The notes beneath the pieces are model-generated. The model made no database searches. It saw only the letters and a list, made by a program, of their open reading frames with translations, and was not told the DNA's origin. DNA of 49,470 nt, filler included, from Stramenopiles sp. TOSAG23-3 (Eukaryota), in NCBI GenBank assembly GCA_900128585.1. It is 4 parts of 4 records of this genome, joined end to end, with 100 filler letters (N's around TTAATTAATTAA, not from the genome) between each part and the next. Parts side by side here need not be neighbours in the genome. Positions count along the whole stretch, not along the records: positions 22,696 to 45,280 come from LT642333.1; 3 more parts are not named here. The stretch is one strand, 5' to 3'. The translations under genes were made by a program, and so were the position numbers. Shown here piece by piece: positions 2,314-47,857 of this stretch. Every line of letters begins with the position of its first letter. Position 1 is the stretch's first letter.

Positions 2314-5300
2314 ATGGCGGAGCCAGTAAAGCGGGCTGCCTCGGCGGAAGCACTTCACACGGCAGGATCAAAAAGTGGTGGTCCAGTTGCCCCATGTGCT
2401 TCCCAGCCGACATTTTTGACGTTAGGACAAGTAGAAGGTGAGAAAAATACTGAAGGGGATAAAATAGCAGAAATGAAGCAGCAGATACTTCGGCAGAGGG
2501 AGATGCAGAAACAGCGTTTGAAAGAAATAAATGAAAAGAAGCGGAAGGCAGACGCCGTTGCGGAGAAGATCAAACGGGACATGATCGACAAAATTAACTT
2601 CAAAGGGTTCGATCAATCGTATTACAAGGATTTGCCAATGCAGCCGGGCGTCTCTTTTTTTAAATGGCTCGTCCCGAAAGACATAAAGAATAGTTTGCAA
2701 GTGAAGAGAATGCCTGGGATTAACGCCCTCAAAATAAAACTACCGGAAACTGTCGTTTATTCCCAACGCTTTGGAGTGCCGGAGGTGTGGGTGGGCACCG
2801 CTCACTCTGATGGGTGCGTTGTGAAGCGAAAATTGGCAAAGAACTGGAGGAAGAAGTTCGTTAAAAAAGCAACATCGGGTGCAATTTGGGGGATCAATAG
2901 GAGGCCCTCTTCACCCAGGCGTCGGAAGCGGGAGGGTGCAAACCCAGACGTGGTCGGCATGTTGAAAATTGCAAACACGGTGCATCCGCAAAGTTCCGCC
3001 ACTCGAACCGTCACGGCGTACCATATCGAGAAAACACTAGGAAAACCCACGCCCGAAGCGGCCCTATGTGGCGTGCAGGGTTACGTTCGGTGTAAGGGGC
3101 CGAGGGCCGTCGTCTACCGTGTTGTGTGGAGGCAGAAAAAGAACCCTTATGCCTTTTGTATTGTGAACGCAATGGATTTCGCGACCGTAGGGTCGAAGAA
3201 AAACCACGAAAGCACCTTGACAGACGATGCGCTGGAAAAGCTTTTGACCCGGATTTATTGCGCAACGTCGGACGTCAATGGGAGGGGCAAACTTCCGAAC
3301 CTGAAAGTTTTTGAAATTACGGGCCAGGCCTTGGGGCCGATGATAGACGAACTTAGCAAAATTGTTAAATATGTCCAAAAGCAAGACACAGAGTACGGCA
3401 GGATGAAATTCTCGGAATTTGTTGGCGACTTTATCAGGTCAAAGGATGGCGACTTGGTGTTTTTGCAGTGCAAGGCGTACAAACTGGAGCCAGAATGCTA
3501 CGCAAAGGTGCGGAAGCAGCTCAAAAGCGAAGAAGACGGGACTCTTTACGGGGATTTTGCGAGCATGGAGCATGATGCAAGCCCCGAGCGGCGCGTTGGG
3601 CCCGATGTTCACCTGAAACCCCCCAAAAAAAAGTCAAAGTTTGAGGAAAGGTTGAAAGCGAATGGCAAGCAGTGCTTCTTTTGCGAGCAGAAATACCTAG
3701 AGGGTGATCGGCTCCCGTTGGCCAGGGTTGGGGGGAGCCCGAAGAAACGGCAGATTACGCACCACCGTCATAGACATCGGCATCGCCACGGCCTCGACGA
3801 CGAAAATTCTGAGGATGGGCCGAATCCTGTCACCTTGTTCCAAAGGAAGGTGGAAAACTTTGGGTATGATTTGACCGAAAGAATGATGCAAGACACGCTG
3901 CGAACGCTGCACCGCCGCGGCATCAACCCACACTGTTTTGCAGATCACATAAAGCAATCGGCAGCCCGGGCAGAAATACCAAACCCGGTGTTGGACCGCC
4001 ATGGGCCTCGTGTGAAGGTCGGGGCGGCCTCAGATTTACATAAAGTGTGCCGCCCTTGTTTTGAGATTCACAATTCGCAAAGGGTACTTGGCGCGCTGAG
4101 CCGCCAATTCTCGCTCTCCCTTGGCGTTCCCCGTAAGATGTCGAAATCGTTTTACTTGCAGTCTGACAAGGTAGAATCCCGGTTTAACCGATTGGCGGGG
4201 CCTGGTCGAAAACTGAAGCAACGCGAAGACGCGGGGGGGACGATCGCCCCGCCGGCGTACCCTTCATATGCCGACCCGGCGGGGTTGCCGCGCCCTCCAC
4301 CAAACAGCATCGACCCAAAATTTTTGGAGTGGGTCGAGGTGAAAGATGCACCAGGCCATGCGATGCAGTTTAGAATGTTTTTCTTTTTTCACGAGCTTGA
4401 AGAGGTCACTGCTTCAAAGTTACCGGCTAGTATTCACGCCGAGGCACAGTATTCTGTGGTAGAATCCGTCCACCGGATCCAGATACCCCTGAAGGAGCGG
4501 GGGAAGCATGGCTTGGCCCCCGACGTTGTGCCTATAAAGCAATTGCGGATGAACTATTTGTACGCATCGCCGAAAGATCTGCAGTCTTACCTGTACAACA
4601 CAGCATTAGAGCTAAAGTTGATTCTGACTGTTGGGGAGGGAAAGGATATGATGGCGGCGGAAGGTGTAGCCAAAATTTATTTGACGTCATTTTTGTCCAG
4701 TGGCGTTGGCCGCTTCGGCAACAGGGGGTACTCCCATAAAGCAGACATGAGAATAGTCGTTCCTACAGAACCCTTGGGGGAAGTCACATTTCGCATATCA
4801 GTGGGCATTGTAGGGGACGCCGTTGCCCTAGACGATGGTCTGCTAGACACGCGAAAAGTTCGCCTCGGAAAAATGAACGTAAAGCACAACGACACGATTT
4901 ACTGGATGCCAGAGAATTACCATGATTCCCGGGCTATGCCAGAGACATGGATGGGCGCTATAACACATGGGGTTTCTGCACTGCGGGAGACGAACCTCAA
5001 CGTTGAGAAGGAAATGTCACAAGAGGAAATAATGGCATCAAAGGTGGAAAACAGAGAGAAGCACATCATAAGTCTGTTCTTTCACTTGCTTTACGCAAAT
5101 AAAAGTGATTCTCGGGCAGAGGACGTCCGCAAAAGTGAAGAAATTCTTCGAAGTGTGGAAGCGATACTGGACCTGAGGAGCCGGAGCTCTATTAGCAGTT
5201 CGCGCTCCTTGTTCAAGGCCGTTGCAAAGCTGACGAACGAAATATCATTTGAACGAAATATGGAAGAGAAGGAGGCGGAGCAGCGGGCATACTCACTACG

Positions 5301-7998: not shown

Positions 7999-8043
7999 GA
8001 AGAAAAGTGCCCTACGCGCGCACGGTAACATTTATAATTCTTT

Positions 8044-8136
8044 GAAAAACAAGAAAATCGGCTGTTATCATATGATATTTAAGTAAGGGTTAAATTAATG
8101 TACTGCGAACTGAAATCTAGATTTAGACATTCTAGG
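8044..8136 (-). mobile_element. Family-1 short interspersed insertion with 12-bp target-site duplication (TSD)
   Basis: Reverse copy of ...TCTAAATCTAGATTTCAGTTCGCAGTACATTAA...AACAGCC(A/G)ATTTTCTTGTTTT, flanked by TTATAATTCTTT at 8032-8043 and 8137-8148. Confidence 0.8.
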
Positions 8137-8196
8137 TTATAATTCTTTTAGTGTCTTAAAATCGCAAAAGTTACAAAAACTTTCCGCGTAAGTAAA

Positions 8197-11599: not shown

Positions 11600-11652
11600 A
11601 CTTTGAGGAGATAATTTATTACTTTTTAATTTAAGGGTACGACGAAGCTAAA

Positions 11653-11818
11653 TTTAATTACTTAAATAACAGCCAATTTTCTTGTTTTTTGTGCTTTTAC
11701 CTCAACGAATTATTTAATCTAGGAGTTAATTTTAGCAGTCGCAAATTAGATCAGTTCTACGATTGGGATAATCTTGAGAGTCTTAAAACATACTAGATAT
11801 CATTAGTTTTTTTTTTTT
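11653..11818 (+). mobile_element. Family-1 terminal copy (11653-11690) and family-2 copy (11728-11818)
   Basis: TTTAATTACTTAAATAACAGCCAATTTTCTTGTTTT matches 46625-46660; 11728-11818 is nearly identical to 46739-46830 and ends in a T run. No clean TSD. Confidence 0.8.
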
Positions 11819-12037
11819 AATCTCTAGTAATTTTGAATATGATGTTATAAAACATATATCGTATTACGTAATTTTTTTTTTAACATATCGTATGAATACA
11901 TGATGTTAAAAAATATATGTTGTTCTAATCTCAGTATCATAACATATGATTACCAGTACACAATCCACGAATTTTAATATAATTTAAGAACATTGTTAAA
12001 TTCTTTTTTACTGAAAATTTATCAGGTTACCCTTTAC

Positions 12038-16911: not shown

Positions 16912-17098
16912 GCTGAATGGCATGATGTCCAGTCCCCACGCGCTTGTCTGGCACGACAGCGGAGGGAAAGCATGTGGCATCTGAGGTACTAAGAGTAAGA
17001 ATACTTATGAATGCACACTTGTTCATAGACGATATGAAATTGTTATGCAATGCATTAGCTTACGCAAAGCAAAGCACCTCTTAATTCTTATCATGATG

Positions 17099-17337
17099 TA
17101 CAAGACAGACAACGAGCACCTTTAAAACTATTACGCCGCTGCTTGGAAAATCGTACAAGGATTGAGTCACCTATGAGTGTGATATCGGATGAGGAAGTTG
17201 ATTACGGTTCATTTGCAAGCATTGCTAATCCAGCTACCGATTCGGATCGTTCATGGAGGCCATTCTAGATTTCAGTTTTCAGTTTTCAGTTCGCAGTACA
17301 TTAATATTACTTCAGTAACAGCCAATTTTCTTGTTTT
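17099..17337 (+). mobile_element. Family-1 long copy (~240 bp, internally deleted)
   Basis: 17099-17199 matches 42419-42519; 17138-17258 matches 37971-38086; 17264-17337 is the common T-rich terminus. Confidence 0.85.
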
Positions 17338-17427
17338 AAATTATCTTACGTATGTTGTAACATATTTTATGCCTTTGCTGTTAAATTAATTTACGCACCC
17401 CCAAAACAACCAACGACAGGGCTAACG

Positions 17428-18988: not shown

Positions 18989-19305
18989 ATGAGAGCACGA
19001 AGGGCAAGGGTGGAACGAGAACGGCGGGAAAGGGCAGCGCGCCAGAACGTGGCAGACGCGAACGGCGCGGGCGCGCACGGTGACAACGAACCACCACCTC
19101 GACCCCCACGGAAAGACTTGCCCATTTCCAGTCGCTACAGGGTAATCAAAGTCCTCGGGCGCGGCTCGTTCGGAGAAGCGTTGCGGGTCCAGCGCGTTGC
19201 GGATAAGGTAGACTTTGTTATGAAAAAGATCGATTTGGTGGGAATGCCAAAGAAAGAGCAAAAAGCGGCGATGTTGGAGGTCAAGGTACTGAAGAAACTC
19301 TCCCA
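18989..19305 (+). CDS. 5' part of NIMA-related (NEK) kinase, subdomains I-III
   Basis: YRVIKVLGRGSFGEA...FVMKKI...EVKVLKKLS; the last 81 bp equal the reverse complement of 22515-22595, where the rest of the kinase continues. Confidence 0.9.
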
Positions 19306-19549: not shown

Positions 19550-22500
19550 TTAATTACTACTCTGTTTCGCAATGTGACCCCGCGATTTTCTGAATAGGAC
19601 AGCCAAGGAGTCACTTGATTGATCGAGGGGAGTCACAGGCTTCATGCCCAGCCCGACAATGTGCTCCGATACCTCTAGGTTGCCTTGATCCACTTCGGCG
19701 ATCTCTATTTTCCCTGGGCGGCGGGACGCCCCGGCGCTTTTAACCCGGACTAGATCGTGGTCGGGAACATTCGCGCTCGAATTTTCAAAAAATTTGTTGG
19801 ATGTTTCGTTCGCGAACAGAAGGTTCTTTAAGCTTTCAGCAAGCCCGATCATTTCCTCAACGCCATCGTTCGATCCTGCAGACTTTTTTGTATCGTCCAT
19901 GTCCCCCAGGGTCAGAGTCATCGGAAACAAATCTGACTCGTCGTCAATGTATATTGACGTGGTCATGTCCAGCGCCTTCGTAACCGCGGCAGTGGACGCT
20001 GCCGCCGACGCCACCTCAACGCTGGCGCTGCCGCCTTTTCCAGTATCTACAACATGTGCGTTTTTGTGTTTCATGTCCAGCCGTTTTCGCTCTTCGAATG
20101 CCTCTATTCTGGCTTTTTCAAGGATTGCCAAACGCTCTGCCTCTGCGGCTTGGCGTGCCTTTGCCTTTTCTTCTAGCATTTGCGCCCGCGTTCGCGGTGG
20201 CTTTTGCCCCTCGTTACTCTGAATTCTGCCAGGACCTCCCTCCGTGGGGGATGGGTTCGCTGGCTGCCCAGGCTTCTTTTTCTGATGCTGCTGCCGCAAG
20301 CGCTCGCGATCACGAAAGGCTTCAAGACGGGCCTTTTCCAACTGTTGCAGGCGCTGGGCCTCTTCTGCCTGTCGAATCCTCTCCTTTTCTTCCAGGACTT
20401 GCGCCCGTGTACGGGGTGCGCGCGCACCCCGCGCATTGCCTTCATGGTCTTGATACAGCCCGGGAGGGGGTTTATCTGGGACCGCGGCGCTCGGGTGGTG
20501 CCGGCGTTTCCCGTCTTCTACCCGCTGTTTGTTCCGGAGCATGGCACGCTGATTTTCTTCGAAAATACTTCGACGATCCTGGTCCGTCACGCCGACGGGG
20601 CGAGGAGCAGCTTGTGCGTGTGCGCGGGGGTCTTGCTGGTAAGGATTCATTTGTCCGTATCCGTACGGGTTACCAAAGTGTGGTTGGTTCGCCGCCCACC
20701 CCGAGTTCTGCCGTTGGCGCTGTCCCGCGGCAACGGGGTCCCGATTCAGTGCCTGCCGCTCCCGCGAGTGTTGCTGTTGTTGATATTGCACCCCCTGGCT
20801 GTGGTGGCGCTGCGGCACCTGCTGGAATTGTTGGTTGCTACGGGCTTGCTGCTCATAGTGGTACTGCTGCTGTTGTTGCTGCTGCTGTCGCCGCTGCCAT
20901 TCTTCGTATTCTTGTTGCTGCGTCAGCTGTGCCAGCCGCTCCCTTTGTTCGCGTTCTCGATACCTCAAAACGGCTTCGCGGTGCTGCTGTTGTTCGTACA
21001 ATCGTTCATTGTGTAGTCCTGCGCGCGCGGCATTTTCAGCTTGTAAATTGGTGCCTGTCTGCTCATTTCCATAGTATTGATTCGGTGGCATTTCCGCCGC
21101 TGCAGCTACAAACTGGATTTCGCTCGTGCTATCGTTGCTCATGGATCGGTCCAACTTCGCGGCCACCGCAGAGCCCGTCGCTTCTGCAAACTCCCCTTGC
21201 CTGGCGAAAGGGTTACGATCCACTTGAAATGCCCCAGTCCCTTGTTTTAGGTACAGTTCACGGGCATCCGGTGTTTCGGACCCCGAGTCGTCATCGTCGT
21301 AATTCGATGGCGGCAAGGGCGGTCTTTTCTCGCCCACAGGGTTCGCCCTCTTGCCGGAATCGCCGTTACCTCTTCCCTCTTCGGCGCCTTGCCGTGGCGG
21401 ACTCTCCCCTTTCACCAAAACTTCAACCTCCTCGTCGTTGTGCCAGTCATTGTTCCACGATGGTCGCTTGTCTAGCTTGGCCTTGCTATTCTTCCGGTCG
21501 CGCTGCATCTGCTCGCGGCGTTTCTGTCGTAAAAGTGCAATTCGCTTCCTCTCCTTCTCCTTTCTCATTTGTTTCTCTTCCCGAAAAACAATCTGGGCCT
21601 TGATCTCTTCCTCCCGTTTCTGCTTTGCCCTTTCTTCCCGGGCTCGCAGTCGCGCTTCCCTTTTCGCCGCAACTACCTTCCGCCGTTCCTCTTCCTCTCC
21701 CGCCTGTGCCGCCTGTGCCCGTTTCTGCAACATGTCGGCTTTCATGATTTCCATGTCTTTCGTTATTTTTTCCATCCGGTCTTTCAGATTTTGATCCCGC
21801 GGCGTTTTGCGGTCCTGCTTCGTCACGGCTTTGCTTGACTTGTTCATAACTTCTTCCAAAAGGCTTTTGCTGTGCTCCTTGATAAATGCCCGCTTCAGAA
21901 TGTGGCGAATGTCAGGCCTGCGCAACGGGCTCTTCTGGAGCATCGCCTCTCCGAGCTGCCGGAACTCTCGGGAGTACGTGTTTGGGATTCGTTTCGGGGG
22001 CATGCTAACGACCTTCTTTACGAGGCCGAGCAAGTTGTTCGCGTTGAACGGAACTTCCAGCAACGCCAGCTCGTAAAACAAAACCCCCAGCGACCACACG
22101 TCGCTCTTGAGAGTATACGGTTGATCCTTGCAAATTTCCGGGGACATGTAATACGGCGTCCCGGCCACGGTGTTGCACTTGTCCATCGTCTTTTCCAGTA
22201 CTTTTGCAATCCCAAAGTCTCCCAGCTTCACTATATCCATTTGCAAAAAATCTGTGCCCGTGTTGTGCAAGAAGACGTTCGCGGCCTTGATATCCCGGTG
22301 CATGATGTGGTGTTTGTGCATGTATCCCAACGCAAGCATACACTGGATCATGATACGAAGGATCCGTTTTTCACTCAGCGGCTGCCGCTTCTTATTCCGG
22401 GACTTTATAAGGGCGGACAGGTCCCCCCCGTTCGCGTACTCCATGACAATCAGCAGGCGAGGAGAAGCCCCCCCCCTCTCTTGTCCTGCTTCTTCATACC

Positions 22501-22595
22501 TCACAATGTTTGGGTGGGAGAGTTTCTTCAGTACCTTGACCTCCAACATCGCCGCTTTTTGCTCTTTCTTTGGCATTCCCACCAAATCGATCTTT
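19550..22595 (-). CDS. NEK1-like Ser/Thr kinase, remainder of the kinase domain plus long coiled-coil/Gln-rich tail (5'-truncated at contig end)
   Basis: HPNIV, MEYANGGDL, HRDIKAANVFL, KLGDFGIAK, GTPYYMSPE, KSDVWSLG; duplicated tail motif PRTRAQ.LEEK...LEKAR.EAF..R.RL. Confidence 0.93.
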
Positions 22596-22695
22596 NNNNN
22601 NNNNNNNNNNNNNNNNNNNNNNNNNNNNNNNNNNNNNNNTTAATTAATTAANNNNNNNNNNNNNNNNNNNNNNNNNNNNNNNNNNNNNNNNNNNN
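22596..22695. other. Artificial contig-joining spacer
   Basis: N44-TTAATTAATTAA-N44, with stops in all six frames. Confidence 0.98.
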
Positions 22696-23850: not shown

Positions 23851-25390
23851 TTACAGCTGAGCAGCACATCGTTCACAACTACAGGTAAACCCATAATCTC
23901 TTAGCTTTTCCCGACGTTCACTGTATGACAAACTGGAGTCAATGTATGAAAATGAAATTTCGTCCCCCTTCTTAATATTTTTGATTGTTTTCACAATCGC
24001 CTGCAGAGCGTTCGATTCCTCATCCCAGAGAATTTCAGCGTTTGGGTTGCACGAATGGTTCATGCAGCATATCACTGTAAACAATGCAGTGCCATCCAAG
24101 GGCGGGAAGTAAGCTTCTAGGTTAATGCTATTAATGTCAGCTGGTATGTGGCCCTCCTGTGACTGGTCAAGCTCGTCCTCAACCTCCACTCGCATGCTTT
24201 CCACGGTGCCCTGTGCCCTGTTCTTGTTGTCCTCCTGCTCCGCTTGTTGCCCATCGTCACCAGCGTTCTCTTCGAAGTCTTCCCCTTCCTCTTCGTCCCA
24301 CATACCGTTGGCTTCAATTTCGGCCAGCAAAGGCCTAAGGGTGAAAAATGTAATAAGTTGTGTTAGAATTGTAAAAGGATAAGAATCATGATCAAACTTA
24401 CAACAATTTGCCCAACAGTCCACTCTCCACGGATTGCCCTGCGGCGACGCCCTGCCCTTTCGGCACTGGTGCATTGACGTCTGCCATCTTTGCCTCTATT
24501 CCAAGTGCGACGAGTGACTTTCGACGAATGCCTAAATTATTTTGCTCAAACATACCGATGATTGAGCCGTAATAATCAACGTTAAATAGCTCGTCAAACT
24601 CCTTATCTGAGATTTGCACCGGGCTACAATTGGACAGAATAGCCTGTCGGAGAAGATGAAAGGATTCCATTGATAACTCATACAATGTATTTGCCAGCAT
24701 ATTTTTTTCTTCCAGTACCTCGCTTTCATCACCGGCTGTGTTTGACGGCCACACCACATCCCACCATTTGTTTTGCACAAAGCGTTTAAACGCCTCTTTG
24801 GACCTTTTTGGGTCCTTCTTGTATCTCATAATAATGCTCGTCACAACCTGTGCAGCCAAAATAAATATTTCGTTCGTCTCCATAGCATGTAGCTTGAACT
24901 GAATTATGGGGTGCTCTCTTGAACTCTCGCCATCGATTGGGCCGGTGCACAAAATAGCATGGCCATTTCTTGCATTATCATTTCCTTGGCATTCTGAAGA
25001 ACAGTATATTTCCCCGCAAGAGCAAACTACATGAGATGGGGGTCGTTTGATGTCCTCTTCGCCAAGAAGTGTCCAGCTCTGCTCGTACTTTAAATAGTCT
25101 AAACGGTTTATTTTCCTCTGCAATAAATCAATCTGTTGCTCCAGGGTGCCAATATTGCACTTACAATAGTGGCACACCACGACATCAAATTTATTGTCCA
25201 AACTCTGCATGGCCACAAGGGGCGATTCTCTATGGATCAACACGCCCTTCGAGATATCACTGGTCGCCACAATAATTTTTCCTTTGCTCTTGGTCTTCAC
25301 AACTTGAAAGCAGGATCCCACGTCCGCAGCGTTGAGTTTGTCCGAGTAGTAGTCCACCGCTTCGCCACCACCAACCGCCAAGGACGCCAT
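23851..25390 (-). CDS. SET/MYND (SMYD5-like) lysine methyltransferase; 2 exons: 25390-24402 and 24334-23851
   Basis: KGKIIVAT..I.KG, MYND-like CHYC...CSCGEIYCSSEC..H...C, NHSCNPN, GDEISFSY, post-SET YGFTCSCERC. Removing the intron restores the frame GKLL-PLLAEIE. Confidence 0.92.
24335..24401 (-). other. 67-nt spliceosomal intron
   Basis: GTAAGT donor, TTCTAAC branch point, pyrimidine tract and CTTAG acceptor; AT-rich; joins two SET-domain ORFs in frame. Confidence 0.92.
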
Positions 25391-25871: not shown

Positions 25872-26129
25872 AACTAAGAAGCTATTTTATATAATACGGA
25901 TAATATGTGTGTATGATGGTTTAAATTATTATTATTTGTACGTAATTAGCTAGTTATTTATAGGTAATCGAAACTCGAAACTCGTGTTCTTGCTTACCCT
26001 ATACATAGCAAGCAAGTTGAAAACCAAAGAACTAGAAACTAATGGAAAGGCAACGATGCACGGTCGACTTACTAGACTTCTAGACAAGCGTCGCCTTTTG
26101 AGTTGCCAGCGAATCGGGCGGGTAGATGA

Positions 26130-27632
26130 ATGGATCTTGACGCTCTCTTGGACAATGAAAAGGAAGGCGACACGCCACCCTTCACGTACAGTCCAACGTC
26201 GTTGAGTGAATTGTGTGCGACAGAGGTGGCAAGATTAGTTGTTTTGGACAGACGAAAAATGTGCAAAATTTTAAATCGGTTGCCCTGGGGGATAGTGAGG
26301 ATTGTGCTCATGCGTCTCCCTGGAGATGTCGTGTTTTACTACCAGGTTATGTGTAACGAATACCATTTTGACCTTTTTGATTGGGAGTGTATCTGGAGCA
26401 TTAAATACAACGAGACATTACGCACCACAAAAGAATTGAACGAGGATAGACTGGAGCCCTCTGACTCATGGAGCTCGGGTATGATCCCGCTTTTACCACG
26501 TTCGTTAGATGGCTTCTACGTAGACATGAAAAAAGAATCTTGGGCCAATAGAGAAAAGCCATCTGAGCATTTTGCCACCTTCGTTAAAGAGATGAAACGT
26601 ATAATTAGTTGCATGCGTGGAGTGCGGCAAAAGCCTGCTTCCCCACTGAAGAAGAAAAATGCGAAACAATTAGTATCGTCCCGCAAGTCCAAGTCTAGAG
26701 CCAAAGGTTCCGCTGATCGCAGCTTTAATAAGTCCGAACGAGGATTGCTGAAGCCAACGTCCAAACGGACTTCCTTGCCACCAATCGCAAAGCGGAAGAA
26801 AACCCAAAAAAAACCTCCAAAGCCGTCAAAGTCTGCTGGAGTACTGCCGGCGAAGAAATACAATTTCTGCGTACCGCTGGTGTTTGGGTGCAATGCAACA
26901 GAGGTGGCCCTGAACTTTTTTTTCCCTTTCCAAAATATACTAGAAAGTCTGTGGAAAAACGAGGTGCGACCCCCATTTATTGGAGAAAATTCCCTCGTTA
27001 ACTTGACTCTTCGGGGCGCCTCAATAGATAATGGTTTGGTGTCGCGTATTTGCCAACAGCACAAGTTGCTGCAGAAGTTAGACCTTACAACCCAGGACTG
27101 TAGATGTACAGGCAGCGATGCACTGCTTTCCATAGCAAACCATCTGCATAAACTAAAAGAGCTTCGCTTAGGATGCTGGCCAGAAGATGCTGTAAATTTT
27201 GAATCAATAGATGCCTTCTGCAATGTTCTTCAATCCGAACAAGGAATGCTGTTGCCCCCGAGGGATGAAGCTCGTGCAGCAAAGTCGGCTGCTAGAAAGA
27301 TAAGGCAAACGTGCAAGGTGTATTCGTCTTCGTTAATCCATTTAGATTTGTCTAATTGCCTGGGGGTCAATTCAAGCGCACTTAATACAATTTTTTCAAA
27401 AAACCCAGGGATTCTAGACATGTGCGTTTTCGGGTGTTACATGTTGACCAGCGAATCACTTTTCGGGATGACCAACCCCGACTGTCGCCTTGTTCGCTTA
27501 AATTATAGCGGTGCATACAAACTCACTGATCAAGAGTTTGTTCGCCCACTATTAAGTGTTCACCCGGATATTGTATTTTACAACAGCCCGAACGAGTTCG
27601 GTGATTACGTTACCACCAAGAAAAGTTTCTAA
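26130..27632 (+). CDS. Leucine-rich-repeat protein (FBXL/AMN1-like Cys-containing LRRs), possible N-terminal BC-box/F-box-like segment
   Basis: PTSLSELC..V, LNRLPW; C-terminal LQKLDL, LKELRLGC, LIHLDLSNC, LVRLNYSG repeats. Confidence 0.85.
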   Translation: MDLDALLDNEKEGDTPPFTYSPTSLSELCATEVARLVVLDRRKMCKILNRLPWGIVRIVLMRLPGDVVFYYQVMCNEYHFDLFDWECIWSIKYNETLRTTKELNEDRLEPSDSWSSGMIPLLPRSLDGFYVDMKKESWANREKPSEHFATFVKEMKRIISCMRGVRQKPASPLKKKNAKQLVSSRKSKSRAKGSADRSFNKSERGLLKPTSKRTSLPPIAKRKKTQKKPPKPSKSAGVLPAKKYNFCVPLVFGCNATEVALNFFFPFQNILESLWKNEVRPPFIGENSLVNLTLRGASIDNGLVSRICQQHKLLQKLDLTTQDCRCTGSDALLSIANHLHKLKELRLGCWPEDAVNFESIDAFCNVLQSEQGMLLPPRDEARAAKSAARKIRQTCKVYSSSLIHLDLSNCLGVNSSALNTIFSKNPGILDMCVFGCYMLTSESLFGMTNPDCRLVRLNYSGAYKLTDQEFVRPLLSVHPDIVFYNSPNEFGDYVTTKKSF

Positions 27633-27700
27633 AAAATATTAATTACGAAAAACCTAATTCAGTTTATCTTAAATAGCAGCCAATTATATAGTATAATAAC

Positions 27701-28350
27701 AAAAAAACAAATTATATAGTATGTTTTAAGAAGTCAAAAAAAAGTTAATATCATAAGAAGTCAAAAAAGAAAAGAAAAAAGAAGGTAAAACCGTTCAAGA
27801 ACCCAAACTCCTCCTTGTTCCAGAATAAGACTATCATAAAATTGTTTGAGACAGCGGCTATTATTGTTTTGCAGATGCCTGGATCTATCTCAAAACTTAT
27901 TATGATGATCATAATGATGAATTTCTTTCAAGTCGTACATACATAAACCTGCGTAAATGTATCTTCTAAAGATCCAAGACTACCAAGAGTATCATGGATT
28001 TTCCACTTCAGGGCGTATTCGTATTCATCATTCAAACTATCACCTGATTGGTCTCTTCGAAAAACATGAACGTCATTTCCGATTGTATTGATTTCCCTTG
28101 CACGACCACAAGAAGTTCGTAGGTGCCCCCGGCAGGCTCGGTTGCTGCCCCATAGGCTACGTTTACATGTTGTGATAATCCGCCCAATAGAGCGTCTACC
28201 GGCACGTCGTCCGACACGGTAACAAAAGGCAATAAATGATGATCCATGGTACTTCTTCATGTACCGCGAATGTAAATCTGCTCCTTTTGTCCATTAAATG
28301 TTTACGTTCCTTCATATACTGCAAACTTATCTCTGCTCCTGTGATTTTAC
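27701..28350 (-). mobile_element. Longest interspersed-element relic (~650 bp) with decayed coding-like sequence; family-2 terminus plus a module shared with family 1
   Basis: Ends in CTTAAAACATACTATATAATTTGTTTT; 27704-27789 is repeated at 28701-28759; 28257-28350 is the reverse complement of ~38140-38236; broken reading frames. Confidence 0.65.
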
Positions 28351-28439
28351 TATTTTATATTAAGTATGTAACTTTAATTATAAAAAATTAATATTACGAT
28401 AGTATGCTTTAAGACTCTCATTTTATTTTATATCAATTA

Positions 28440-28525
28440 AAACAAGATAATTGGCTGTTATATTTAAGTAATTAAAATTAATGTACTGCGAACTGAACTC
28501 TAGATTTAGACATTCAAGGTTTACA
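28440..28525 (-). mobile_element. Family-1 insertion with 11-bp TSD
   Basis: Flanked by TATATCAATTA at 28429-28439 and 28526-28536; near-identical to 8044-8136. Confidence 0.8.
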
Positions 28526-28994
28526 TATATCAATTACAATTTCAGTTTTCCAACTCTAATCCTAACTTGATGTTTTCTTTCGTTGGTTGTCAATCACTGA
28601 GAGGAGTTATATTCCAATGAACAATTACTACCAAGTGTCAAGATGTTTCTTTTCTTGGTATCATAAAGGTAATCTGTAATCAACAAACATATGATATATC
28701 AAAACAAATTATAGTATCATATGTTTTAAGTCAAAAAAGAAAAGAAAAAAGAAGGTAAATCATATTCTAAAAGTAAATGCTGCTTCCACATTTAGTATCT
28801 TGCTATTATTATAGGACATTACCGTAGTAAAATTAATGTTATACGAAGGTATTATTTACGAAAACAAAACAATCATTATGCCTGCATGGAGTACATCTGA
28901 GAATGATAGTCAAGACTCCTCGTAAGCGACAAGACCTGTATCATACGAAATGATCCCTTATTTCGCGCTGACCTCGGATCCATGATGAGTTAAA

Positions 28995-30539
28995 TTATAA
29001 TCCCGACGCCTTTTTGCACGTATTTACTCGACCCACACTAGTGCAGCAATGGAACCCATTTCCACACACGCAATTCCCAGATTCACTATTTTTCAAGGAA
29101 AACATTTGCAAGGCCGTCGAAACTGCAGAGCTCTCGTGTTTTGACCAAGTGCACCATGTTTTATCCGACTGCGAGGTGGTGCAATCGTCTTTAGTTTTGT
29201 GCTGGCTGCAATCGTGTTTGTCATTGCTACCGGGGGCAGAGTACCCATTCTTTTTCGTGCACACCACCGCTGGATCTTTTGCCACAGCCTTGTAGTGTCG
29301 TACCTCTTCTGAAAAAGTGTACTTTTGGCCCTGCTCAATCTTGCAGGGTTTGCTACGGGGACCTTCGGTGCCAAAGCGCACTGCCTCTGCTTCTCCCCGT
29401 GTTACACTAGTTAAGCAGTACACCCAATCCACAAAATCTCCATCGTTGCATTTAGCTTTTCCTTTGGATTTGTCGATGTTGCAGATTGTTTCAATGGCTG
29501 TGTTTATCAAGTCGTTTTTCGATTCTACGCAACTCTTGTCTCCTTCCTCCTCTTCCTCCTTCGTCGGGTTTCCAGGCGATACCCTGGAGGGGCCTTCGCT
29601 GTCATCGAGGAGTGTATAGCTCAGACACTTGGAACAATCCGCCCGAGTTCCACCGTAACAACGCCCGTCGTGGTCGGTAGTTAAAGTCTCGTCCTCGAGC
29701 GCTGTCTTAATGATAGGAAGAATGATGTCCCTCCATTCTTTCTTTCCTGGGACTACTTGGCAACCTTTTGACCAATTCTTTACTTTTGTTGGAGTGTAAC
29801 CATATCCTTTCTTTAAAATCGTCGAATGAAAGTTCAACGCCCATGATTTGGTCGCTGTTGGGTTGCCTGATGCACTTTCTTGAAGGCGATACACAGATGA
29901 AGTTGGCCCCGTTGAGTGACGTTCCAACAACCACTGGTCGACTCCCATACATTTCAGCGCTGGGTACCCGTTGTGGTCTCCCATGCAATATTTATTCAAG
30001 TACTGGCCTGGTTTCATCACAGAGGTTTTGCTTGAGGACATCAGCGCGTGGCCCGGCAAGGTTGTCATTGCTGTAGTGTAGTGTCGATAGACATCCAGTT
30101 CACTGCAGTGCCAGACCAAATGCAACTCATCGTCAAACTTGTTTGTAAATACATCTTTCCAGCACGAATCGTCCGTCTTTCCCTTTGGGCAAATGCCAAG
30201 TGGGCTGTTCTTGCGAACACCAATGATGTTAACATCCCCGTCCTTGGTCCTAATTTTCATCCCATCAGTGTCACGGACTCTTTCTAATATGAGAGGGATC
30301 TTTTTGGACTCTTCGATCCCATCCTCGACGGGGAGAGCTTTGTCACACAGCCCTTTCTTAAGCGACTCAATACCTCGTTTCCTTGTGTCCCCCCACTTAA
30401 ACCCATCTGTAGTTGACCATGATTTCCCTCCCCTAACCATCGTGTACGTGTACTGGTGGGGATCCCGCAACAGCGTTGCTGCACTGCTTGCAAACAACAA
30501 GCAGGTCACCACGACAGATGGCTGTCCAAACCGTGTCAT
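28995..30539 (-). CDS. Secreted protein with bacterial/phage-type YkuD-like (L,D-transpeptidase-like) domain and Cys-rich C-terminus
   Basis: Signal peptide from ATG 30539; motif series NIIGVR, NKFDD, TTLPG, PGQY, GDHNGYPAL, LNFH-x18-SKGCQV, SYTLL. Family assigned from recalled motifs, not from a search. Confidence 0.7.
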   Translation of the reverse strand: MTRFGQPSVVVTCLLFASSAATLLRDPHQYTYTMVRGGKSWSTTDGFKWGDTRKRGIESLKKGLCDKALPVEDGIEESKKIPLILERVRDTDGMKIRTKDGDVNIIGVRKNSPLGICPKGKTDDSCWKDVFTNKFDDELHLVWHCSELDVYRHYTTAMTTLPGHALMSSSKTSVMKPGQYLNKYCMGDHNGYPALKCMGVDQWLLERHSTGPTSSVYRLQESASGNPTATKSWALNFHSTILKKGYGYTPTKVKNWSKGCQVVPGKKEWRDIILPIIKTALEDETLTTDHDGRCYGGTRADCSKCLSYTLLDDSEGPSRVSPGNPTKEEEEEGDKSCVESKNDLINTAIETICNIDKSKGKAKCNDGDFVDWVYCLTSVTRGEAEAVRFGTEGPRSKPCKIEQGQKYTFSEEVRHYKAVAKDPAVVCTKKNGYSAPGSNDKHDCSQHKTKDDCTTSQSDKTWCTWSKHESSAVSTALQMFSLKNSESGNCVCGNGFHCCTSVGRVNTCKKASGL

Positions 30540-31029
30540 GTTTGGATGGCTTCTCAATGTTCCTTTGCTTATTAAATTCACGCGATCGCTTGTTCACAAA
30601 CAGTCAGTTTGATTTCCTGTTCAATAAAGTGTATATTGGTTTGTTTTCTATTTCATACAATGAGTAGAAAATCTATAGTTTCGATCATTTGACTTCTTTT
30701 TCAATATATTATTCCTCGTATTATTTATGACTGAATTGTTCTTCCCCTAAAGGAAATATACATTAAGAATAGGGCAATAATAGTACATATATTTCATTTT
30801 ACAGGTAAGAGTATACAAGTATATTTATCCCCCCCCTTTTATGAAAATCATAACAACTTATAAAATTTCTCATACTTTCTTCTTCTACTAACATATTCGT
30901 CTATTTTTAGACGACTAAGTAGATACGTAGATAATAGAATCCCGGAAGGGGTCATTTCATTGATAGGATAAGTAACTGTACTTGACGTGTATACTATTTA
31001 TTATTTTGTAATTCTGAAGTATGCGTTTT

Positions 31030-32223
31030 CTAAAATCCTATCTCATACAGAGTTCCTTGGGTTAGCATAAAAATGATGGGATTCCATACAATCAGATAGC
31101 GAAGGGCATCCAAGAGCTGAGCCCAAACGAGGGACTGCGATTCCCACGGCGTCATGCCCAGAACGGACCGAATGTTCACCTTGTCGCCACAGTTTGGGCA
31201 CGTATGGTTCTTCCCTACAATAACCCACCCTCGTAGACAAAATTCGTGAAATTCATGACCACATTTCAGTTTAACGATACGCTCTTCTCGGGTTATAGAG
31301 CGCTGCTCATGGTTATGAAGGCTGTCATCTGCAAAGTCTTGGCCTTCGATCAAGGCCTCAGTGTCCACACCTAGTTGCCCTGCACACAGAGCACACATGT
31401 TCGTAGGAAGCATACGTTGGGGCTCGTCGTCGTCTTTCTTCGAGTACCCGAGGGCTTGTTTCATCCGCCACGCACACAGCTCAGCGCAGTCGCGCCCGAG
31501 CAAACCGAAGTATAGCCCATAAAACAGTACTATTGTTGCATGGCCGCTGAAAGAACGTGGCAAAAACAGTGCAGCCCGGATACCGAGGAACTCAAGAATG
31601 ACTCCCACGTACCCCCCGACGCTCATCACGTAGCAAATTTTATAAAGCCGGAAAAACCATGTATATACGCGCCTCGGTGTTTTCACGTCCAGCGGGTTTC
31701 TCGTTGCTAACCAGACGTGATAGCCGGTACAAGCCAGGAACATGGCCCATACAGCGACAAAACGCCAAAAGTGAAAATAATCAGCAAAGATGAAGGGGAA
31801 CAGCAGCAACCCCGCTAAAGTGGTTTGCTGGTAGGAATAGTAGTGCGTTTTTCTCCACGTCCACAGTAAAACTTGGGCAACAACCATTACGAACAGCAAA
31901 AACATAAACACGAACGGGGCTCGCTTTCGGCGTGTGCGGAAACGCTCGAGTCGTTCAAGTTGTTCTTTCGTCAGTTTTGATTCCTCGTGAAAACGACCCG
32001 CATGGTGCGGAAATTTTCCCTGGGTTTTCTTTATATTATGATGCAGTCCGACAGTTGCATTTATTCTTCTGGAATCGACCTTCTTCCCCAAAACTGTTTC
32101 TCCCGCAACAATGTCTACACTATAAAGCGCACACGCGCAGAAAGAGAACGCCAGTAAACATCCCAGCCGCCGCAAGTTTAAACTTCGGACCATTTTTCTC
32201 ACCTTGCCTCCCACCCTTTCCAT
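31030..32223 (-). CDS. RNF121/RNF175-like multi-pass RING-H2 E3 ubiquitin ligase
   Basis: TPRRVYTWF, LFYGLYFGLLGRDCAELC, CALC...LKCGHEFHEFCLRGWVIVGK..TCPNC, PWE....W.QLLDALRYLIVWNP. Confidence 0.95.
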   Translation of the reverse strand: MERVGGKVRKMVRSLNLRRLGCLLAFSFCACALYSVDIVAGETVLGKKVDSRRINATVGLHHNIKKTQGKFPHHAGRFHEESKLTKEQLERLERFRTRRKRAPFVFMFLLFVMVVAQVLLWTWRKTHYYSYQQTTLAGLLLFPFIFADYFHFWRFVAVWAMFLACTGYHVWLATRNPLDVKTPRRVYTWFFRLYKICYVMSVGGYVGVILEFLGIRAALFLPRSFSGHATIVLFYGLYFGLLGRDCAELCAWRMKQALGYSKKDDDEPQRMLPTNMCALCAGQLGVDTEALIEGQDFADDSLHNHEQRSITREERIVKLKCGHEFHEFCLRGWVIVGKNHTCPNCGDKVNIRSVLGMTPWESQSLVWAQLLDALRYLIVWNPIIFMLTQGTLYEIGF

Positions 32224-33085
32224 AAATACCTTATCACAGATGCCCAGTTATGTTGTAAAGATCGTTCGGAACGACGGACAGGTGAATACACCGCATGGGG
32301 GTTGTTATACCTTATTTCCGTCTTCCTTTCGTAGATGCTCGAATGTCAGCGTTTAATTCATTTATACATGTAATAATTGCATGAACAACAAAGAGAAGAA
32401 AGAAGAGCTTTTTGTTGTTGTTGGTGTTGTTGTTTATTTTTACCTGGTGGTGGTATGGTATAAATTACCTATTAATAATATTATTATTTTTTATTACTAG
32501 ATGTCTACGTAGTGGCCTCGTAATATTAAAATATAGATATTTATATTTATTATGTTATCACCTGTGGTAATAATCTCTCAAACTACGTAGTATCCTAGTC
32601 AAAGACAACGTTTGACTACCGGTGTACTGGCTAATAGACTATCTACCGATACCGGTAGAACAGAAAATTCGAACTTCATAGTCTCTATAATTAATCAATA
32701 TAATAACTAAGCAGACTATTGTCTATCTATTTGTTGTTGGTATTTGGGCACACTCCAATTACGTAGTCTCAAAAATATCAGGTACAGGTAGGTACCAGGT
32801 ACGGTACCGACCGGAATGGACAATAATAATACTAGACTTGACTGACTATAAGAAGACGACACTTTTAACTACTACTACTAAAATATTTTTTATAAATAAT
32901 ATAATTATTACTTCGTCGTGAACTCTTCGGTATTATACTATTACCGGTGCAATGTTTACAAAAATGAAAGGCGTTCATTCTTTTGCCTTTTTACAGCAAC
33001 CTATTTTATTATTCTGTTCACACAGCACTTACACCTTGGCTGACTTTCAAGAATTTTCCAGAGCAATCTTGCCCAGTTTGAAAAG

Positions 33086-37970: not shown

Positions 37971-38391
37971 GCTGCTTGGAAAATCACATAAGGAATGAGT
38001 CATCTATGAGTGTGACATCGGATGAGGAAGTTACGGGTCATTTGAAGCATTGCTAATCCACCTACCGATTCGGATCATGAATGGAGTACATCTGAGAATG
38101 ATAGTCAACACTAAGTGACAAGGGTATATTGATTTTTAGTAAAACCACAATCAAGAGCAGACATAAGTTCGCAGTGCATGAAGGAACGTATACCTCTAAT
38201 GGACCAAAGGAGCAGATTCATTTTCGCGGTACATGAGAAAGCTAAATTTTAATTTAAACTTCATGAAGGAATGCAAACCTAGAATCTCTAAATCTAGATT
38301 TCAGTTCGCAGTACATTAAATTTTAATTACTTAAATAACAGCCAATTTTCTTGTTTTTAAACTTAAATAACAACAGCCAATTTTTGTTTTT
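37971..38391 (+). mobile_element. Family-1 long copy (~390 bp) with duplicated terminus
   Basis: Contains, in order, the modules seen at 17138-17258, 42045-42120, 28886-28913 and rc 28257-28350, then the common terminus, which is repeated at 38361-38391. Confidence 0.85.
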
Positions 38392-41745: not shown

Positions 41746-41904
41746 TTAAAACTCTCCTCCAAAAAATACGCAACACACCTTGAATCATAATACACCCCCA
41801 GATGGCTGATGTTTATCATTATCATATTGACTAAACTTAATCGACTCTTTAACGAGATTGCTAACTTACTCCTTAATCCCCCTTTAAACGACATATGATA
41901 TATT

Positions 41905-42519
41905 AAAACAAGAAAATTGGCTGTTATTTAAGTAGAGTCGTCTATCCTAATTAAAATTAATGTACTGCGAACTGATTATTTTTAATGAGTAGATTATGGG
42001 TACATTTAATTACTTAAATAACAGCCAATTTTCTTGTTTTTAGATTATGGGTCATGTGGAAGCAGTGCTAATCCATCTACTGATTCAGATCATAAATGGA
42101 GTACATCTGAGAATGATAGTCCAAGAACAATATCTCCTCCTATTGCAGATCCGTCTAAATCTAGATTTCAGTTCGCAGTACATTAATTTTAATTACTTAA
42201 ATAACAGCCAATTTTCTTGTTTAAAAAAAACAAACTAATAATAAAACAAGAAAATTGGCTGTTATTTAACTAATTAATAACAGCCAATTTTCTTGTTTAT
42301 TATAATAGTATGTTTTAAGACTCTCATGTTTCTTGTTTTAATGAGTAGACAAAAAAATAATAGCCAATTTTTTGTTTTTATGAGTCTCAATTCACAAATG
42401 ACAATTCCTTGATTGGTTTACAAGACAGACAACGAGCACCTTTAAAACATACACGCCGCTGCTTGGAAAACCACACAAGGAATGATTCATCTATGAGTGA
42501 GATATCGGATGAGGAAGTT
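41905..42519. mobile_element. Nested cluster of at least seven family-1/family-2 pieces in both orientations
   Basis: Termini at 41905-41974(-), 42002-42040(+, TSD TAGATTATGGGT), 42153-42222(+), 42244-42266(-), 42276-42298(+), 42305-42326 (family 2), 42357-42379(+); internal modules at 42045-42120 and 42419-42519. Confidence 0.85.
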
Positions 42520-45280: not shown

Positions 45281-45380
45281 NNNNNNNNNNNNNNNNNNNN
45301 NNNNNNNNNNNNNNNNNNNNNNNNTTAATTAATTAANNNNNNNNNNNNNNNNNNNNNNNNNNNNNNNNNNNNNNNNNNNN
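45281..45380. other. Artificial contig-joining spacer
   Basis: N44-TTAATTAATTAA-N44. Confidence 0.98.
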
Positions 45381-46449: not shown

Positions 46450-46839
46450 TTGCAGTGTATGAAAAAACAAATTATATATTGCAGTGTATGATATCATAAA
46501 CTTGTAATTTACAAAAGTTTATAACGCGACCTCCTGCTATCACACGACGTGCGAAAATATTGAAAAAAACCAAAATATATAGTATCATATGTTTTAAGAC
46601 AGAAAATATTGATAAGTACCTAAATTTAATTACTTAAATAACAGCCAATTTTCTTGTTTTTAAGTACCTAAACTTATTAAATTCTGATGTAGGAACGACA
46701 AAGGAGGTAAGCATAACCGACCGACTTTAAGTGATATGAATTTTAGCAGTTGCAATATTAGATCAGTTCTACAATTGGGATAATCTTGAGAGTCTTAAAA
46801 CATACTATATATCATTAGTTTTTTTTTTTTAATTCTGAT
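46450..46839. mobile_element. Four adjacent TSD-flanked insertions (16, 38, 36 and 142 bp)
   Basis: 46463-46478 (TSD TTGCAGTGTATGA), 46564-46601 (GAAAATATTGA), 46625-46660 (TAAGTACCTAAA), 46689-46830 (AATTCTGAT). Confidence 0.85.
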
Positions 46840-47375: not shown

Positions 47376-47475
47376 NNNNNNNNNNNNNNNNNNNNNNNNN
47401 NNNNNNNNNNNNNNNNNNNTTAATTAATTAANNNNNNNNNNNNNNNNNNNNNNNNNNNNNNNNNNNNNNNNNNNN
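47376..47475. other. Artificial contig-joining spacer
   Basis: N44-TTAATTAATTAA-N44. Confidence 0.98.
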
Positions 47476-47857
47476 AAGAAATAAGTAAGTATAAGTATGA
47501 TAAGCGATAAGAAGAAACAACACAAGAACGAGAAGAAAAGAAGAAACGAATTAAACAAAAAAAAACAAAGGAAAGTGTTATGAGAGATATTTTTGATCTC
47601 GCGTATCAAAAGGTTTGTATATCAAATATTTACTTAAATTAAGAAGACAAAGAAGATTGATCCTGCACTCTCCCCATCATCATGGCTTTCTTACGGAAGA
47701 AAATCCTTCCAAGAGAGAGAGGAGTGAGTCACCTTCTTTCCATTTTTTTTCTATTATCATCTCTTCCAACCATTGCCGTCGCACCGGTTGTGCAAATTAA
47801 TTAAAACAGTGTTCGTTCCTATTTACAAATGTGTGTGTGTGGTGGTCCCAGGCAGAT

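Follow-up and report, generated by a model that had tools for sequence, protein, structure and literature searches.

Enzymes of the YkuD family carry out LD-transpeptidase, LD-carboxypeptidase and LD-endopeptidase reactions on the bond between meso-diaminopimelic acid and D-Ala (mDAP-D-Ala), as described in a 2025 review (PMC12729407). An altered LD-transpeptidase fold is put to antibacterial use by Tlde1a, an LD-carboxypeptidase/transpeptidase effector of type VI secretion (T6SS; PMC9638812). Other wall hydrolases have been acquired laterally by eukaryotes, including GH25 lysozymes (PMC4241558) and the NlpC/P60 proteins of Trichomonas (PMC6299479), and uncultured marine stramenopile predators (MAST-4) express GH22 and GH24 lysozymes highly (PMC8237690). 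Here we describe a gene at 28995..30539, on the minus strand of a 49,470-nucleotide stretch of DNA from Stramenopiles sp. TOSAG23-3 (assembly GCA_900128585.1; hereafter the window), which bears a comparable active-site signature in a eukaryotic setting. With a confidence only a little above even, we favour the reading that its product is a secreted, disulfide-rich enzyme whose core, a domain of ~230 aa, would be a divergent YkuD-like cysteine peptidase of phage or bacterial origin, acting on the peptidoglycan stem peptides of prey bacteria. The fold is a prediction, and we infer, rather than observe, the substrate, the bond, the cellular location and the biological role.

An earlier note on this DNA had placed an intronless open reading frame (ORF) at these coordinates, and the ORF list, the translation and collinear RNA contigs agreed on a complete, intact coding sequence of 514 codons plus stop, with the start ATG at 30539, the stop at 28995-28997 and a product of 514 aa; an in-frame GTG upstream at 30581 would give an alternative product of 528 aa. 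Every motif listed in that note was present in the order and at the places given, namely NIIGVR (residues 104-109), NKFDD (133-137), TTLPG (159-163), PGQY (177-180), GDHNGYPAL (187-195) and LNFH (235-238), followed after 18 residues by SKGCQV (257-262) and then by SYTLL (307-311). This series defines a conserved core of residues 104-311 (29607-30230, minus strand), to which the previously given domain limits of 30230-29607 correspond, and a wider catalytic-type domain of residues 80-325 (29565..30302, minus strand) was drawn from PHROGs homology and the predicted YkuD-like fold. Of the features flanking the domain, the signal peptide proposed earlier stands as a probable one, spanning residues 1 to ~24 (30468..30539, minus strand): a single Arg, Arg3, precedes a 16-residue hydrophobic stretch, VVVTCLLFASSAATLL, and the call was made from Kyte-Doolittle hydrophobicity alone, with a 12-residue maximum of 2.23 at residues 9-20. 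At the other end an acidic linker (EEEEE, residues 329-333) leads into the Cys-rich tail that had also been described, recognised from its Cys positions at residues 337-514 (28998..29531, minus strand), with 13 of the 25 Cys of the whole protein lying within residues 337-508.

The defining YkuD motif, which we take to be a His followed by [S/T]-x-G-C, could be seen in six E. coli L,D-transpeptidases (Ldts), and the suggestion that the window protein carries a His + S-x-G-C signature was upheld by a 101-row alignment of the family, in which H238, S257, G259 and C260 were invariant in 101/101 rows, along with T160, G163, Y180 and T309. The codon of His238, the proposed general base within LNFH, lies at 29826..29828 and that of Cys260, the proposed nucleophile within SKGCQV, at 29760..29762, both on the minus strand. 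A third conserved polar residue, His189 of GDHNG (codon at 29973..29975, minus strand), was kept in at least 90% of the 101 rows and was invariant in 12/12 rows of the eukaryote-type proteins described below. The spacing from His238 to the S-x-G-C motif is 18 residues here, against ~14 in the phage forms. One homologue, L010, is 42% identical over 629 residues to a second family protein, P0004, and no longer has counterparts of H189, H238 and C260, Asp standing at the His238 position, while its C-terminal domain is highly conserved; the joint loss of all three residues is what would be expected if they form one site.

For the fold, an AlphaFold2 model of residues 80-325 was obtained from a 16-row alignment with a predicted local distance difference test score (pLDDT) of 78.8, and a second model from the 101 rows reached a pLDDT of 86.7 and a predicted template-modelling score (pTM) of 0.86. 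Both were compared by VIA-align with 48,161 representative chains of the PDB, and both gave exactly 20 chains at Z>=5, of which 20/20 were YkuD-fold enzymes, with row 21 falling to Z 2.5. The best structural matches were three YkuD LD-carboxypeptidases, aligned over 125-130 residues with a root-mean-square deviation (rmsd) of 3.4-3.6 and Z 8.2-8.9: Pgp2 (6xj7) at the top, with Z 8.9, rmsd 3.6 and 126-128 residues aligned, and next Bd1075 (7o21; Z 8.3 and 8.8 in the two models) and Csd6 (4xzz; Z 8.2 and 8.5). Lower among the 20 rows came L,D-transpeptidases and DpaA, and Tlde1a (7uma) stood near or at the bottom with Z 5.8 and 5.6, below the canonical YkuD enzymes. Since only YkuD-fold chains reached Z>=5 and a gap lay below them, the comparison provides good but not conclusive evidence that the domain adopts a divergent YkuD-like fold. 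In the predicted local layout, a strand that ends in His runs into a loop and S-x-G-C, after which come a short strand and a long helix. This layout resembles the sequence context of the E. coli Ldts. A conserved His, a loop and S-x-G-C are features in common with YkuD enzymes and L,D-transpeptidases (PF03734).

Several results nevertheless weigh against this assignment, and most of them would also favour a wall hydrolase unrelated to YkuD, in which a common beta-sandwich accounts for the structural match and a papain-like or amidase-like His/Cys pair arose by convergence. Best Z values of 7-8 are common in VIA-align for models without a true match, so that Z 8.9 is moderate and scores of 8-9 are near the stated background of the tool. 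Foldseek against the PDB, a check that the earlier note had proposed, returned no match at E<=1e-3 for either model, V. cholerae LdtA appearing at E 0.42. Profile comparison by hhalign, in both cases against shallow reference alignments, gave a probability of 0.4% and E 0.14 with E. coli LdtA/B/C, and a probability of 0.25% and E 0.24 when 154 family rows were compared with six E. coli YkuD domains. Neither YkuD nor Tlde1_dom of Pfam matched any of 16 aligned family members (0/16 at E<=10), although as a control the YkuD hidden Markov model (HMM) found the six E. coli genes at 35-96 bits; the whole window protein matched no Pfam family at E<=10, Tlde1/DUF2778 (PF10908) included, NCBIfam matched 0/16 members, and searches of PDB sequences with a single sequence and with a profile gave no real match, AnkX at E 0.41 being noise. 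The protein also has Q-V after Cys260, where 5/6 E. coli Ldts have I/V-R, and its family differs from YkuD in the extra motifs N-I-I-G-x-R, T-N-x-F-D-D, P-G-Q-Y and G-x-H. An unrelated hydrolase must, however, contend with the finding that in both models all 20 rows at Z>=5 were YkuD-fold, with none between Z 5.5 and 2.5, and that the sole stretch aligned by hhalign laid S-x-G-C exactly onto the catalytic S-x-G-C of the Ldts; a greedier hhalign run placed H238 on their catalytic His, both alignments being non-significant. The spacing of 18 residues, and of ~14 in phage, is likewise near what we presume to be the YkuD range. We consider an origin of this domain outside YkuD improbable. The earlier proposal of kinship with YkuD and Tlde1 thus holds for the predicted fold, which resembles YkuD and more weakly Tlde1a, and does not hold as membership of either family by sequence.

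By its sequence homology, the domain is assigned to the phage family represented by phrog_3000 and phrog_33083. Against PHROGs, the whole protein matched phrog_3000 (listed as of unknown function) at E 1.9e-5 and the C-terminal part of phrog_33083 at E 1.3e-3, and the domain alone matched them at E 4e-6 and E 2.9e-4, with relatives scoring down to 1.9e-38; among the aligned family members, 13/16 matched phrog_3000 and 10/16 phrog_33083, whose name 'endolysin' is an annotation only. A full HMMER scan of 1.84 billion representative sequences found 31 proteins at E<=1e-3, and of 4150 candidates scored with a 16-sequence profile, 2020 reached E<=1e-5, giving a family of at least 2020 clusters; the motifs are thus conserved columns of a real family and not a chance series. 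A typical member has ~200 aa and is named 'hypothetical protein', and of 120 profile matches listed, 119 had no precomputed Pfam domain and one had Amidase_2. The domain was present in 24 phage records, including crAss-like phages, Bacteroides phages and Pseudoalteromonas phage ACA1, and in bacterial genomes of many phyla, where 214/232 candidate stretches proved to be relatives. All six matches in BFVD at E<=1e-3 were phage proteins, one of them named 'Lysin', and the nearest clusters of the ESM Atlas were viral and unnamed; the nearest named cluster after these was Tlde1, at a score of 0.77, which we regard as a lead only.

The company kept by the domain points to the cell wall. As the earlier note had stated, it is often fused to peptidoglycan-binding or lytic modules: PG_binding_1 occurs in the eukaryote-type protein P0013, SPOR in P0018, the baseplate-spike oligonucleotide/oligosaccharide-binding (OB) domain Phage_base_V in P0027 and Amidase_2 in P0104, and at locus L040 the partner within a 378-aa protein is a phage amidase/endolysin domain. 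On a Bacillota contig (L030) two copies adjoin an XhlA-like gene, and in P2/HP1-like prophages the family gene is found between the tail tube and the tail chaperones. Phage ACA1 (L006, OR438928.1), whose genome has been annotated with care and lists 52 features, has two holins and no annotated endolysin, and the product of its tail-module gene gp35 (21970-22590), annotated 'hypothetical protein', is a family member and the only and obvious candidate for the missing enzyme. In the phage and bacterial world, the best explanation of the domain is an endolysin or virion-associated lysin module. These surroundings differ from the bacterial periplasm of YkuD enzymes, the setting here being phage and eukaryote, and also from those of Tlde1, since the family was seen in tail modules or lysis modules of phages and among genes of eukaryotes, with no T6SS or immunity gene.

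Phage members of the phrog families are ~200 aa long, with a median of 3 Cys, and lack a signal peptide; the protist protein adds one to this form, together with an N-terminal extension, further Cys and a 180-aa tail, and in this it is one of a group. In a quick, unrooted IQ-TREE search, 12 eukaryote-type proteins with complete domains formed one side of a branch with a Shimodaira-Hasegawa-like approximate likelihood-ratio (SH-aLRT) value of 100, opposite 46 phage and bacterial rows made up of the 14 nearest phmmer matches and 32 taken at random from 118; partial domains (P0015, P0017, P0025), fragments replaced by longer members of their clusters (P0005, P0006) and a duplicate (L009) were excluded. 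A hydrophobic N-terminus was present in 10/11 Met-starting eukaryote-type proteins against 2/116 of the phage type, and Cys counts were 15-27 against a median of 3. The group is diverse, with mutual identities of 30-61%, and four metagenome loci ranged from 32 to 51% GC, which indicates that several organisms are involved. Eukaryotic gene context was observed for 3/12 members, namely this window, L008 (beside a dynein heavy chain gene) and L010 (HECT and ankyrin genes), and from protein features and the presence of EukProt members in three clusters we infer that the remaining members are eukaryotic as well; the contig ends of L007-L010 showed no poly(A). A metagenome scan with eukaryote-type patterns matched 344 stretches; no more than 4 of these proved to be relatives, each on a short contig. 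When IMG/VR was scanned, the alignment of eukaryote-type proteins yielded 68 pattern stretches, P0026 yielded 8 and P0018 yielded 1, with 0 relatives, a pattern-limited result that is not evidence of absence from giant viruses.

The architectures within the group are varied. A Cys-rich tail like that of the window protein is found in P0003 (48-50% identity), and acidic linkers with half of the tail in P0178 and P0185, whereas P0011 and P0013 have N-terminal Cys-rich repeats (pattern C..GG.C....C.GG....CC), P0013 also carrying PG_binding_1. Proteins of 632-720 aa (the P0004 cluster and L010) carry a second conserved domain at the C-terminus, the L010 example being a 662-aa paralogue-type protein encoded at 2825-4813 of its contig between the HECT and ankyrin genes. 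From its DCSGF, GDILL and GGHV motifs, this second domain may be NlpC/P60-like; searches of Pfam (E<=1), of the PDB by phmmer and of PHROGs (E 0.021, a tail protein) failed to confirm such an identity. The tail of the window protein (residues 330-514) had no Pfam match, no usable Atlas match and a best PHROG match of E 0.061. Its initial ~95 residues constitute a six-Cys module, which exists independently too: P0014 (367 aa) is secreted and contains two tandem copies of this module without an enzyme domain, and the tail is thus an independent module.

These lineage-specific features raise an alternative in which the Cys/His site has been kept but repurposed, so that the protein would act either as a peptidase or transpeptidase on something other than peptidoglycan, such as secreted or surface proteins of the organism itself, or mainly in binding or sensing. 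The eukaryote-type group is separated from all phage and bacterial forms by a long branch (1.23 + 0.42 changes per column), and it has TTLPG or TTVPG where the phage proteins have TTDPG. Cys185, Cys302 and Cys305 are additional conserved residues in the group, and its tails are new; a change of substrate in the group is possible. The existence of the tail module apart from the enzyme domain, and of the L010 paralogue with its three polar residues lost and its frame still open, are in keeping with such a history. Against this, 12/12 eukaryote-type rows retain H189, H238 and C260, one eukaryote-type protein bears PG_binding_1, and the closest precedents for these architectures in phages are all directed at the wall. 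Repurposing is in our judgement unlikely, and we continue to favour an enzyme of the bacterial wall.

The gene lies physically among eukaryotic genes and is transcribed. The region 28600-31000 was present in 20 public runs from 13 studies, nearly all marine metagenomes, 7 of them recorded as RNA, and four of these runs were compared over 26000-33000: one of DNA (X3) and three of RNA from three studies (X11, X17 and X18). The earlier note had asked for the linkage to the flanking eukaryotic genes to be checked, and the link to the adjacent RING gene was shown by an independent 2904-nt contig of the marine DNA run X3 (28888-31791), which spans the gene and the first part of the RING gene. The longest RNA contig over the gene (run X11; 28888..30646, minus strand) is 1759 nt long and reaches ~107 nt past each end of the ORF, a contig of run X18 covers 28888-30458, and the oligo-dT-primed run X17 supplied contigs at 28966-30303, 30274-30391 and 30362-30591. 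The contigs of all three RNA runs were collinear with the DNA across the ORF and showed no joint within it, hence no intron, and together with the eukaryotic neighbours they mark it as a genuine transcribed eukaryotic gene. The RING gene was found on separate RNA contigs, and the spacer 30680-30913 had a depth of 0 in the three RNA runs and was covered in X3. Because the 3' end of the longest RNA contig coincides with a repeat, that end may be an assembly break. Five population variants were found in the ORF, of which four are synonymous and the fifth (C13W) falls in the signal peptide.

These data also bear on whether the gene is a bacterial or phage contaminant, or the product of a chimeric join in the assembly. 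The window does consist of at least four contigs joined artificially, N runs flanking a linker, TTAATTAATTAA, that puts a stop into each of the six frames, at ~22597-22695, 45281-45380 and 47376-47476; a perfect 81-nt inverted duplication, 19225-19305 / 22515-22595, of which one arm abuts an N run at the extreme end of a contig piece, looks like an amplification or an assembly chimera; and the left flank of the gene, 27730-28887, is full of dispersed repeats and was bridged by no single contig of X3. The gene, however, lies inside one piece (~22696-45280), ~6 kb from the nearest joint, and its composition equals that of its neighbours. Its homologues in the group adjoin dynein, HECT and ankyrin genes on other contigs, and its signal peptide and tail are of the eukaryote type. 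Contamination was accordingly rejected, as a very remote prospect, on the strength of the independent contig linkage to the RING gene, the presence of the gene in oligo-dT-primed RNA among other runs, the matching composition and the eukaryotic context of the homologues.

The composition of the gene speaks to its age as well. It has a GC content of 0.485, a GC content at third codon positions (GC3) of 0.534 and a synonymous-codon distance to the other genes of 0.136, a distance that ranks 10th of 19 genes, and it matches its neighbours. The suggestion that it arrived late is rejected because the composition matches and because the eukaryote-type group is diversified in sequence and architecture; the gene is probably foreign in origin, and the group to which it belongs is old. 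The earlier note had drawn its case for late arrival from the position of the gene at the only break in strand alternation. Within the piece ~22696-45280 the strand does alternate in 8/9 gene adjacencies, the single break being formed by this gene and the RING gene, and as the window is made of joined contigs, gene order and strand pattern across the joints carry no meaning; even within the piece, the break cannot tell which of the two tandem genes moved. Across all contiguous pieces, the strand alternates in 14/15 adjacencies (ORFs >=150 aa).

The group would fit a single capture followed by vertical descent and duplication, and in the unrooted tree the eukaryote-type proteins are not nested within the phage and bacterial rows. 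A direction from phage or bacterium to eukaryote is suggested by the far wider distribution of the domain in prokaryotes and viruses, together with its putative substrate. In its fullest form, which we offer as a tentative and rather doubtful proposal, a whole branch of YkuD-like cysteine peptidases would be common in phages as an endolysin or virion-lysin module that has gone unrecognised; an ancestor of marine heterotrophic stramenopile-like protists would have captured the domain once, and it would then have radiated into a secreted toolkit for cutting the stem peptides of prey, an overlooked and globally expressed partner of lysozymes in marine bacterivory and the first use of an L,D-transpeptidase fold by eukaryotes. 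The toolkit of this proposal would comprise forms carrying the six-Cys module, PG_binding_1, defensin-like Cys repeats or a second hydrolase-like domain.

For the window protein as a wall enzyme, a mechanism can be put forward by analogy with YkuD. Cys260, activated by His238, would attack a peptide bond of the peptidoglycan stem, the likeliest target being the L,D bond after the diamino acid, and a thioacyl-enzyme intermediate would form and be resolved by water, the outcome being either trimming of the stem (as by an LD-carboxypeptidase) or cutting of a cross-link (as by an LD-endopeptidase). In a lytic role, an endopeptidase cut of the donor stem of a cross-link would be more plausible than trimming. 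Two points tell against the reading as a wall enzyme: stem trimming alone would not lyse a cell, and no activity test was found for any family member. The signal peptide would route the protein to the secretory or endolysosomal system, where, together with lysozymes, it may help to take apart the walls of bacteria that have been ingested or are close by.

It could also be envisaged that the protein is a secreted antibacterial weapon or a factor for symbiont control that works outside the cell and has no part in food-vacuole digestion. A signal peptide and a high Cys content fit an extracellular protein stabilised by disulfides, and there are precedents for eukaryotes using laterally acquired wall hydrolases on bacteria (PMC6299479, PMC4241558). 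The data, however, do not separate the two destinations, the named relatives of a neighbouring gene are stramenopiles, and the high lysozyme expression of uncultured marine stramenopile predators (PMC8237690) fits digestion. As a replacement for digestion we rate the weapon as unlikely, and as a location for the same chemistry an extracellular antibacterial role is as admissible as one in the food vacuole.

The remainder of the window is eukaryotic in character, and its other frames encode a protein kinase, the RING membrane protein, an EF-hand protein, an Fz-like protein, an M54 peptidase-like protein, a mitochondrial carrier, an acid-amidase-like protein, an asparagine synthase, a SET protein, a short-chain dehydrogenase and a CCCH zinc-finger protein. 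Among named sequences, those nearest to the asparagine synthase come from oomycetes (64%), labyrinthulomycetes (~61%) and other stramenopiles, unnamed environmental sequences being closer at 69-74%. As a lead from this single gene, the source is probably an uncultured stramenopile of the sea. The SET-domain gene is split over overlapping frames, 23851-24474 and 24398-25390 (minus strand), by an assembly frameshift or a short intron, and an Rfam scan of the window gave 0 matches. The genes are laid out head-to-head and tail-to-tail with unusual regularity, separated by AT-rich spacers whose GC content falls to 0.27 against ~0.5 for the genes.

A family of dispersed short repeats was found at 8041-8148, 11648-11821, 17083-17367, 27695-28526, 28883-28917, 37971-38358, 41891-42519 and 46563-46833. 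They occupy spacers past gene 3' ends: six lie between convergent genes, and one follows the short-chain dehydrogenase gene, which is the sole gene of its contig piece. One shared core is ...ACAGCCAATTTTCTTG..., and the repeats could represent an element resembling a miniature inverted-repeat transposable element (MITE) or a shared 3'-end signal. The copy in the 3' flank of the gene described here, 35 nt long (28883..28917; family D15), recurs at 38078-38112 and 42093-42127, and many loose contig ends fall on it in DNA and RNA runs. In the repeat-rich spacer downstream of the gene, a 110-aa ORF lies at 27928-28260 (minus strand), the segment 28252-28341 recurs inverted at 38152-38241 with 84% identity, and depth over 28340-28573 was ~1343, against ~3 for genes, in one marine DNA run.

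The movement of wall hydrolases into eukaryotes is a known kind of event, and like GH25, NlpC/P60 and the lysozymes of MAST-4, the gene described here would be a bacterial or phage wall enzyme fixed and expressed in a eukaryote living on or alongside bacteria. It would differ from GH25, GH22/GH24 and NlpC/P60 in being a cysteine peptidase of the peptide stem, with a different fold and chemistry, and what is new is thus the enzyme class, a YkuD-like family abundant in phages with a secreted and diversified eukaryotic branch. A literature search, with subscription journals and supplements outside its coverage, found no YkuD-like enzyme in a eukaryote, and in the 2025 LD-transpeptidase review (PMC12729407) not one word starts with 'eukaryot'.

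On the phage side, the family has at least 2020 clusters and neither a Pfam nor an NCBIfam model, and if its activity were demonstrated, 'hypothetical proteins' in their thousands could be named and the endolysin repertoire would gain a new catalytic class. On the side of the protist, small marine bacterivorous flagellates govern how abundant bacteria are in the ocean and how nutrients are recycled there, and the wall-digesting enzymes described from them are mostly lysozymes, which cut glycan strands (PMC8237690). If our reading is true, an enzyme that cuts the stem or the cross-link would provide these organisms with a second tool, complementary to lysozymes, and could shape which prey is digestible.

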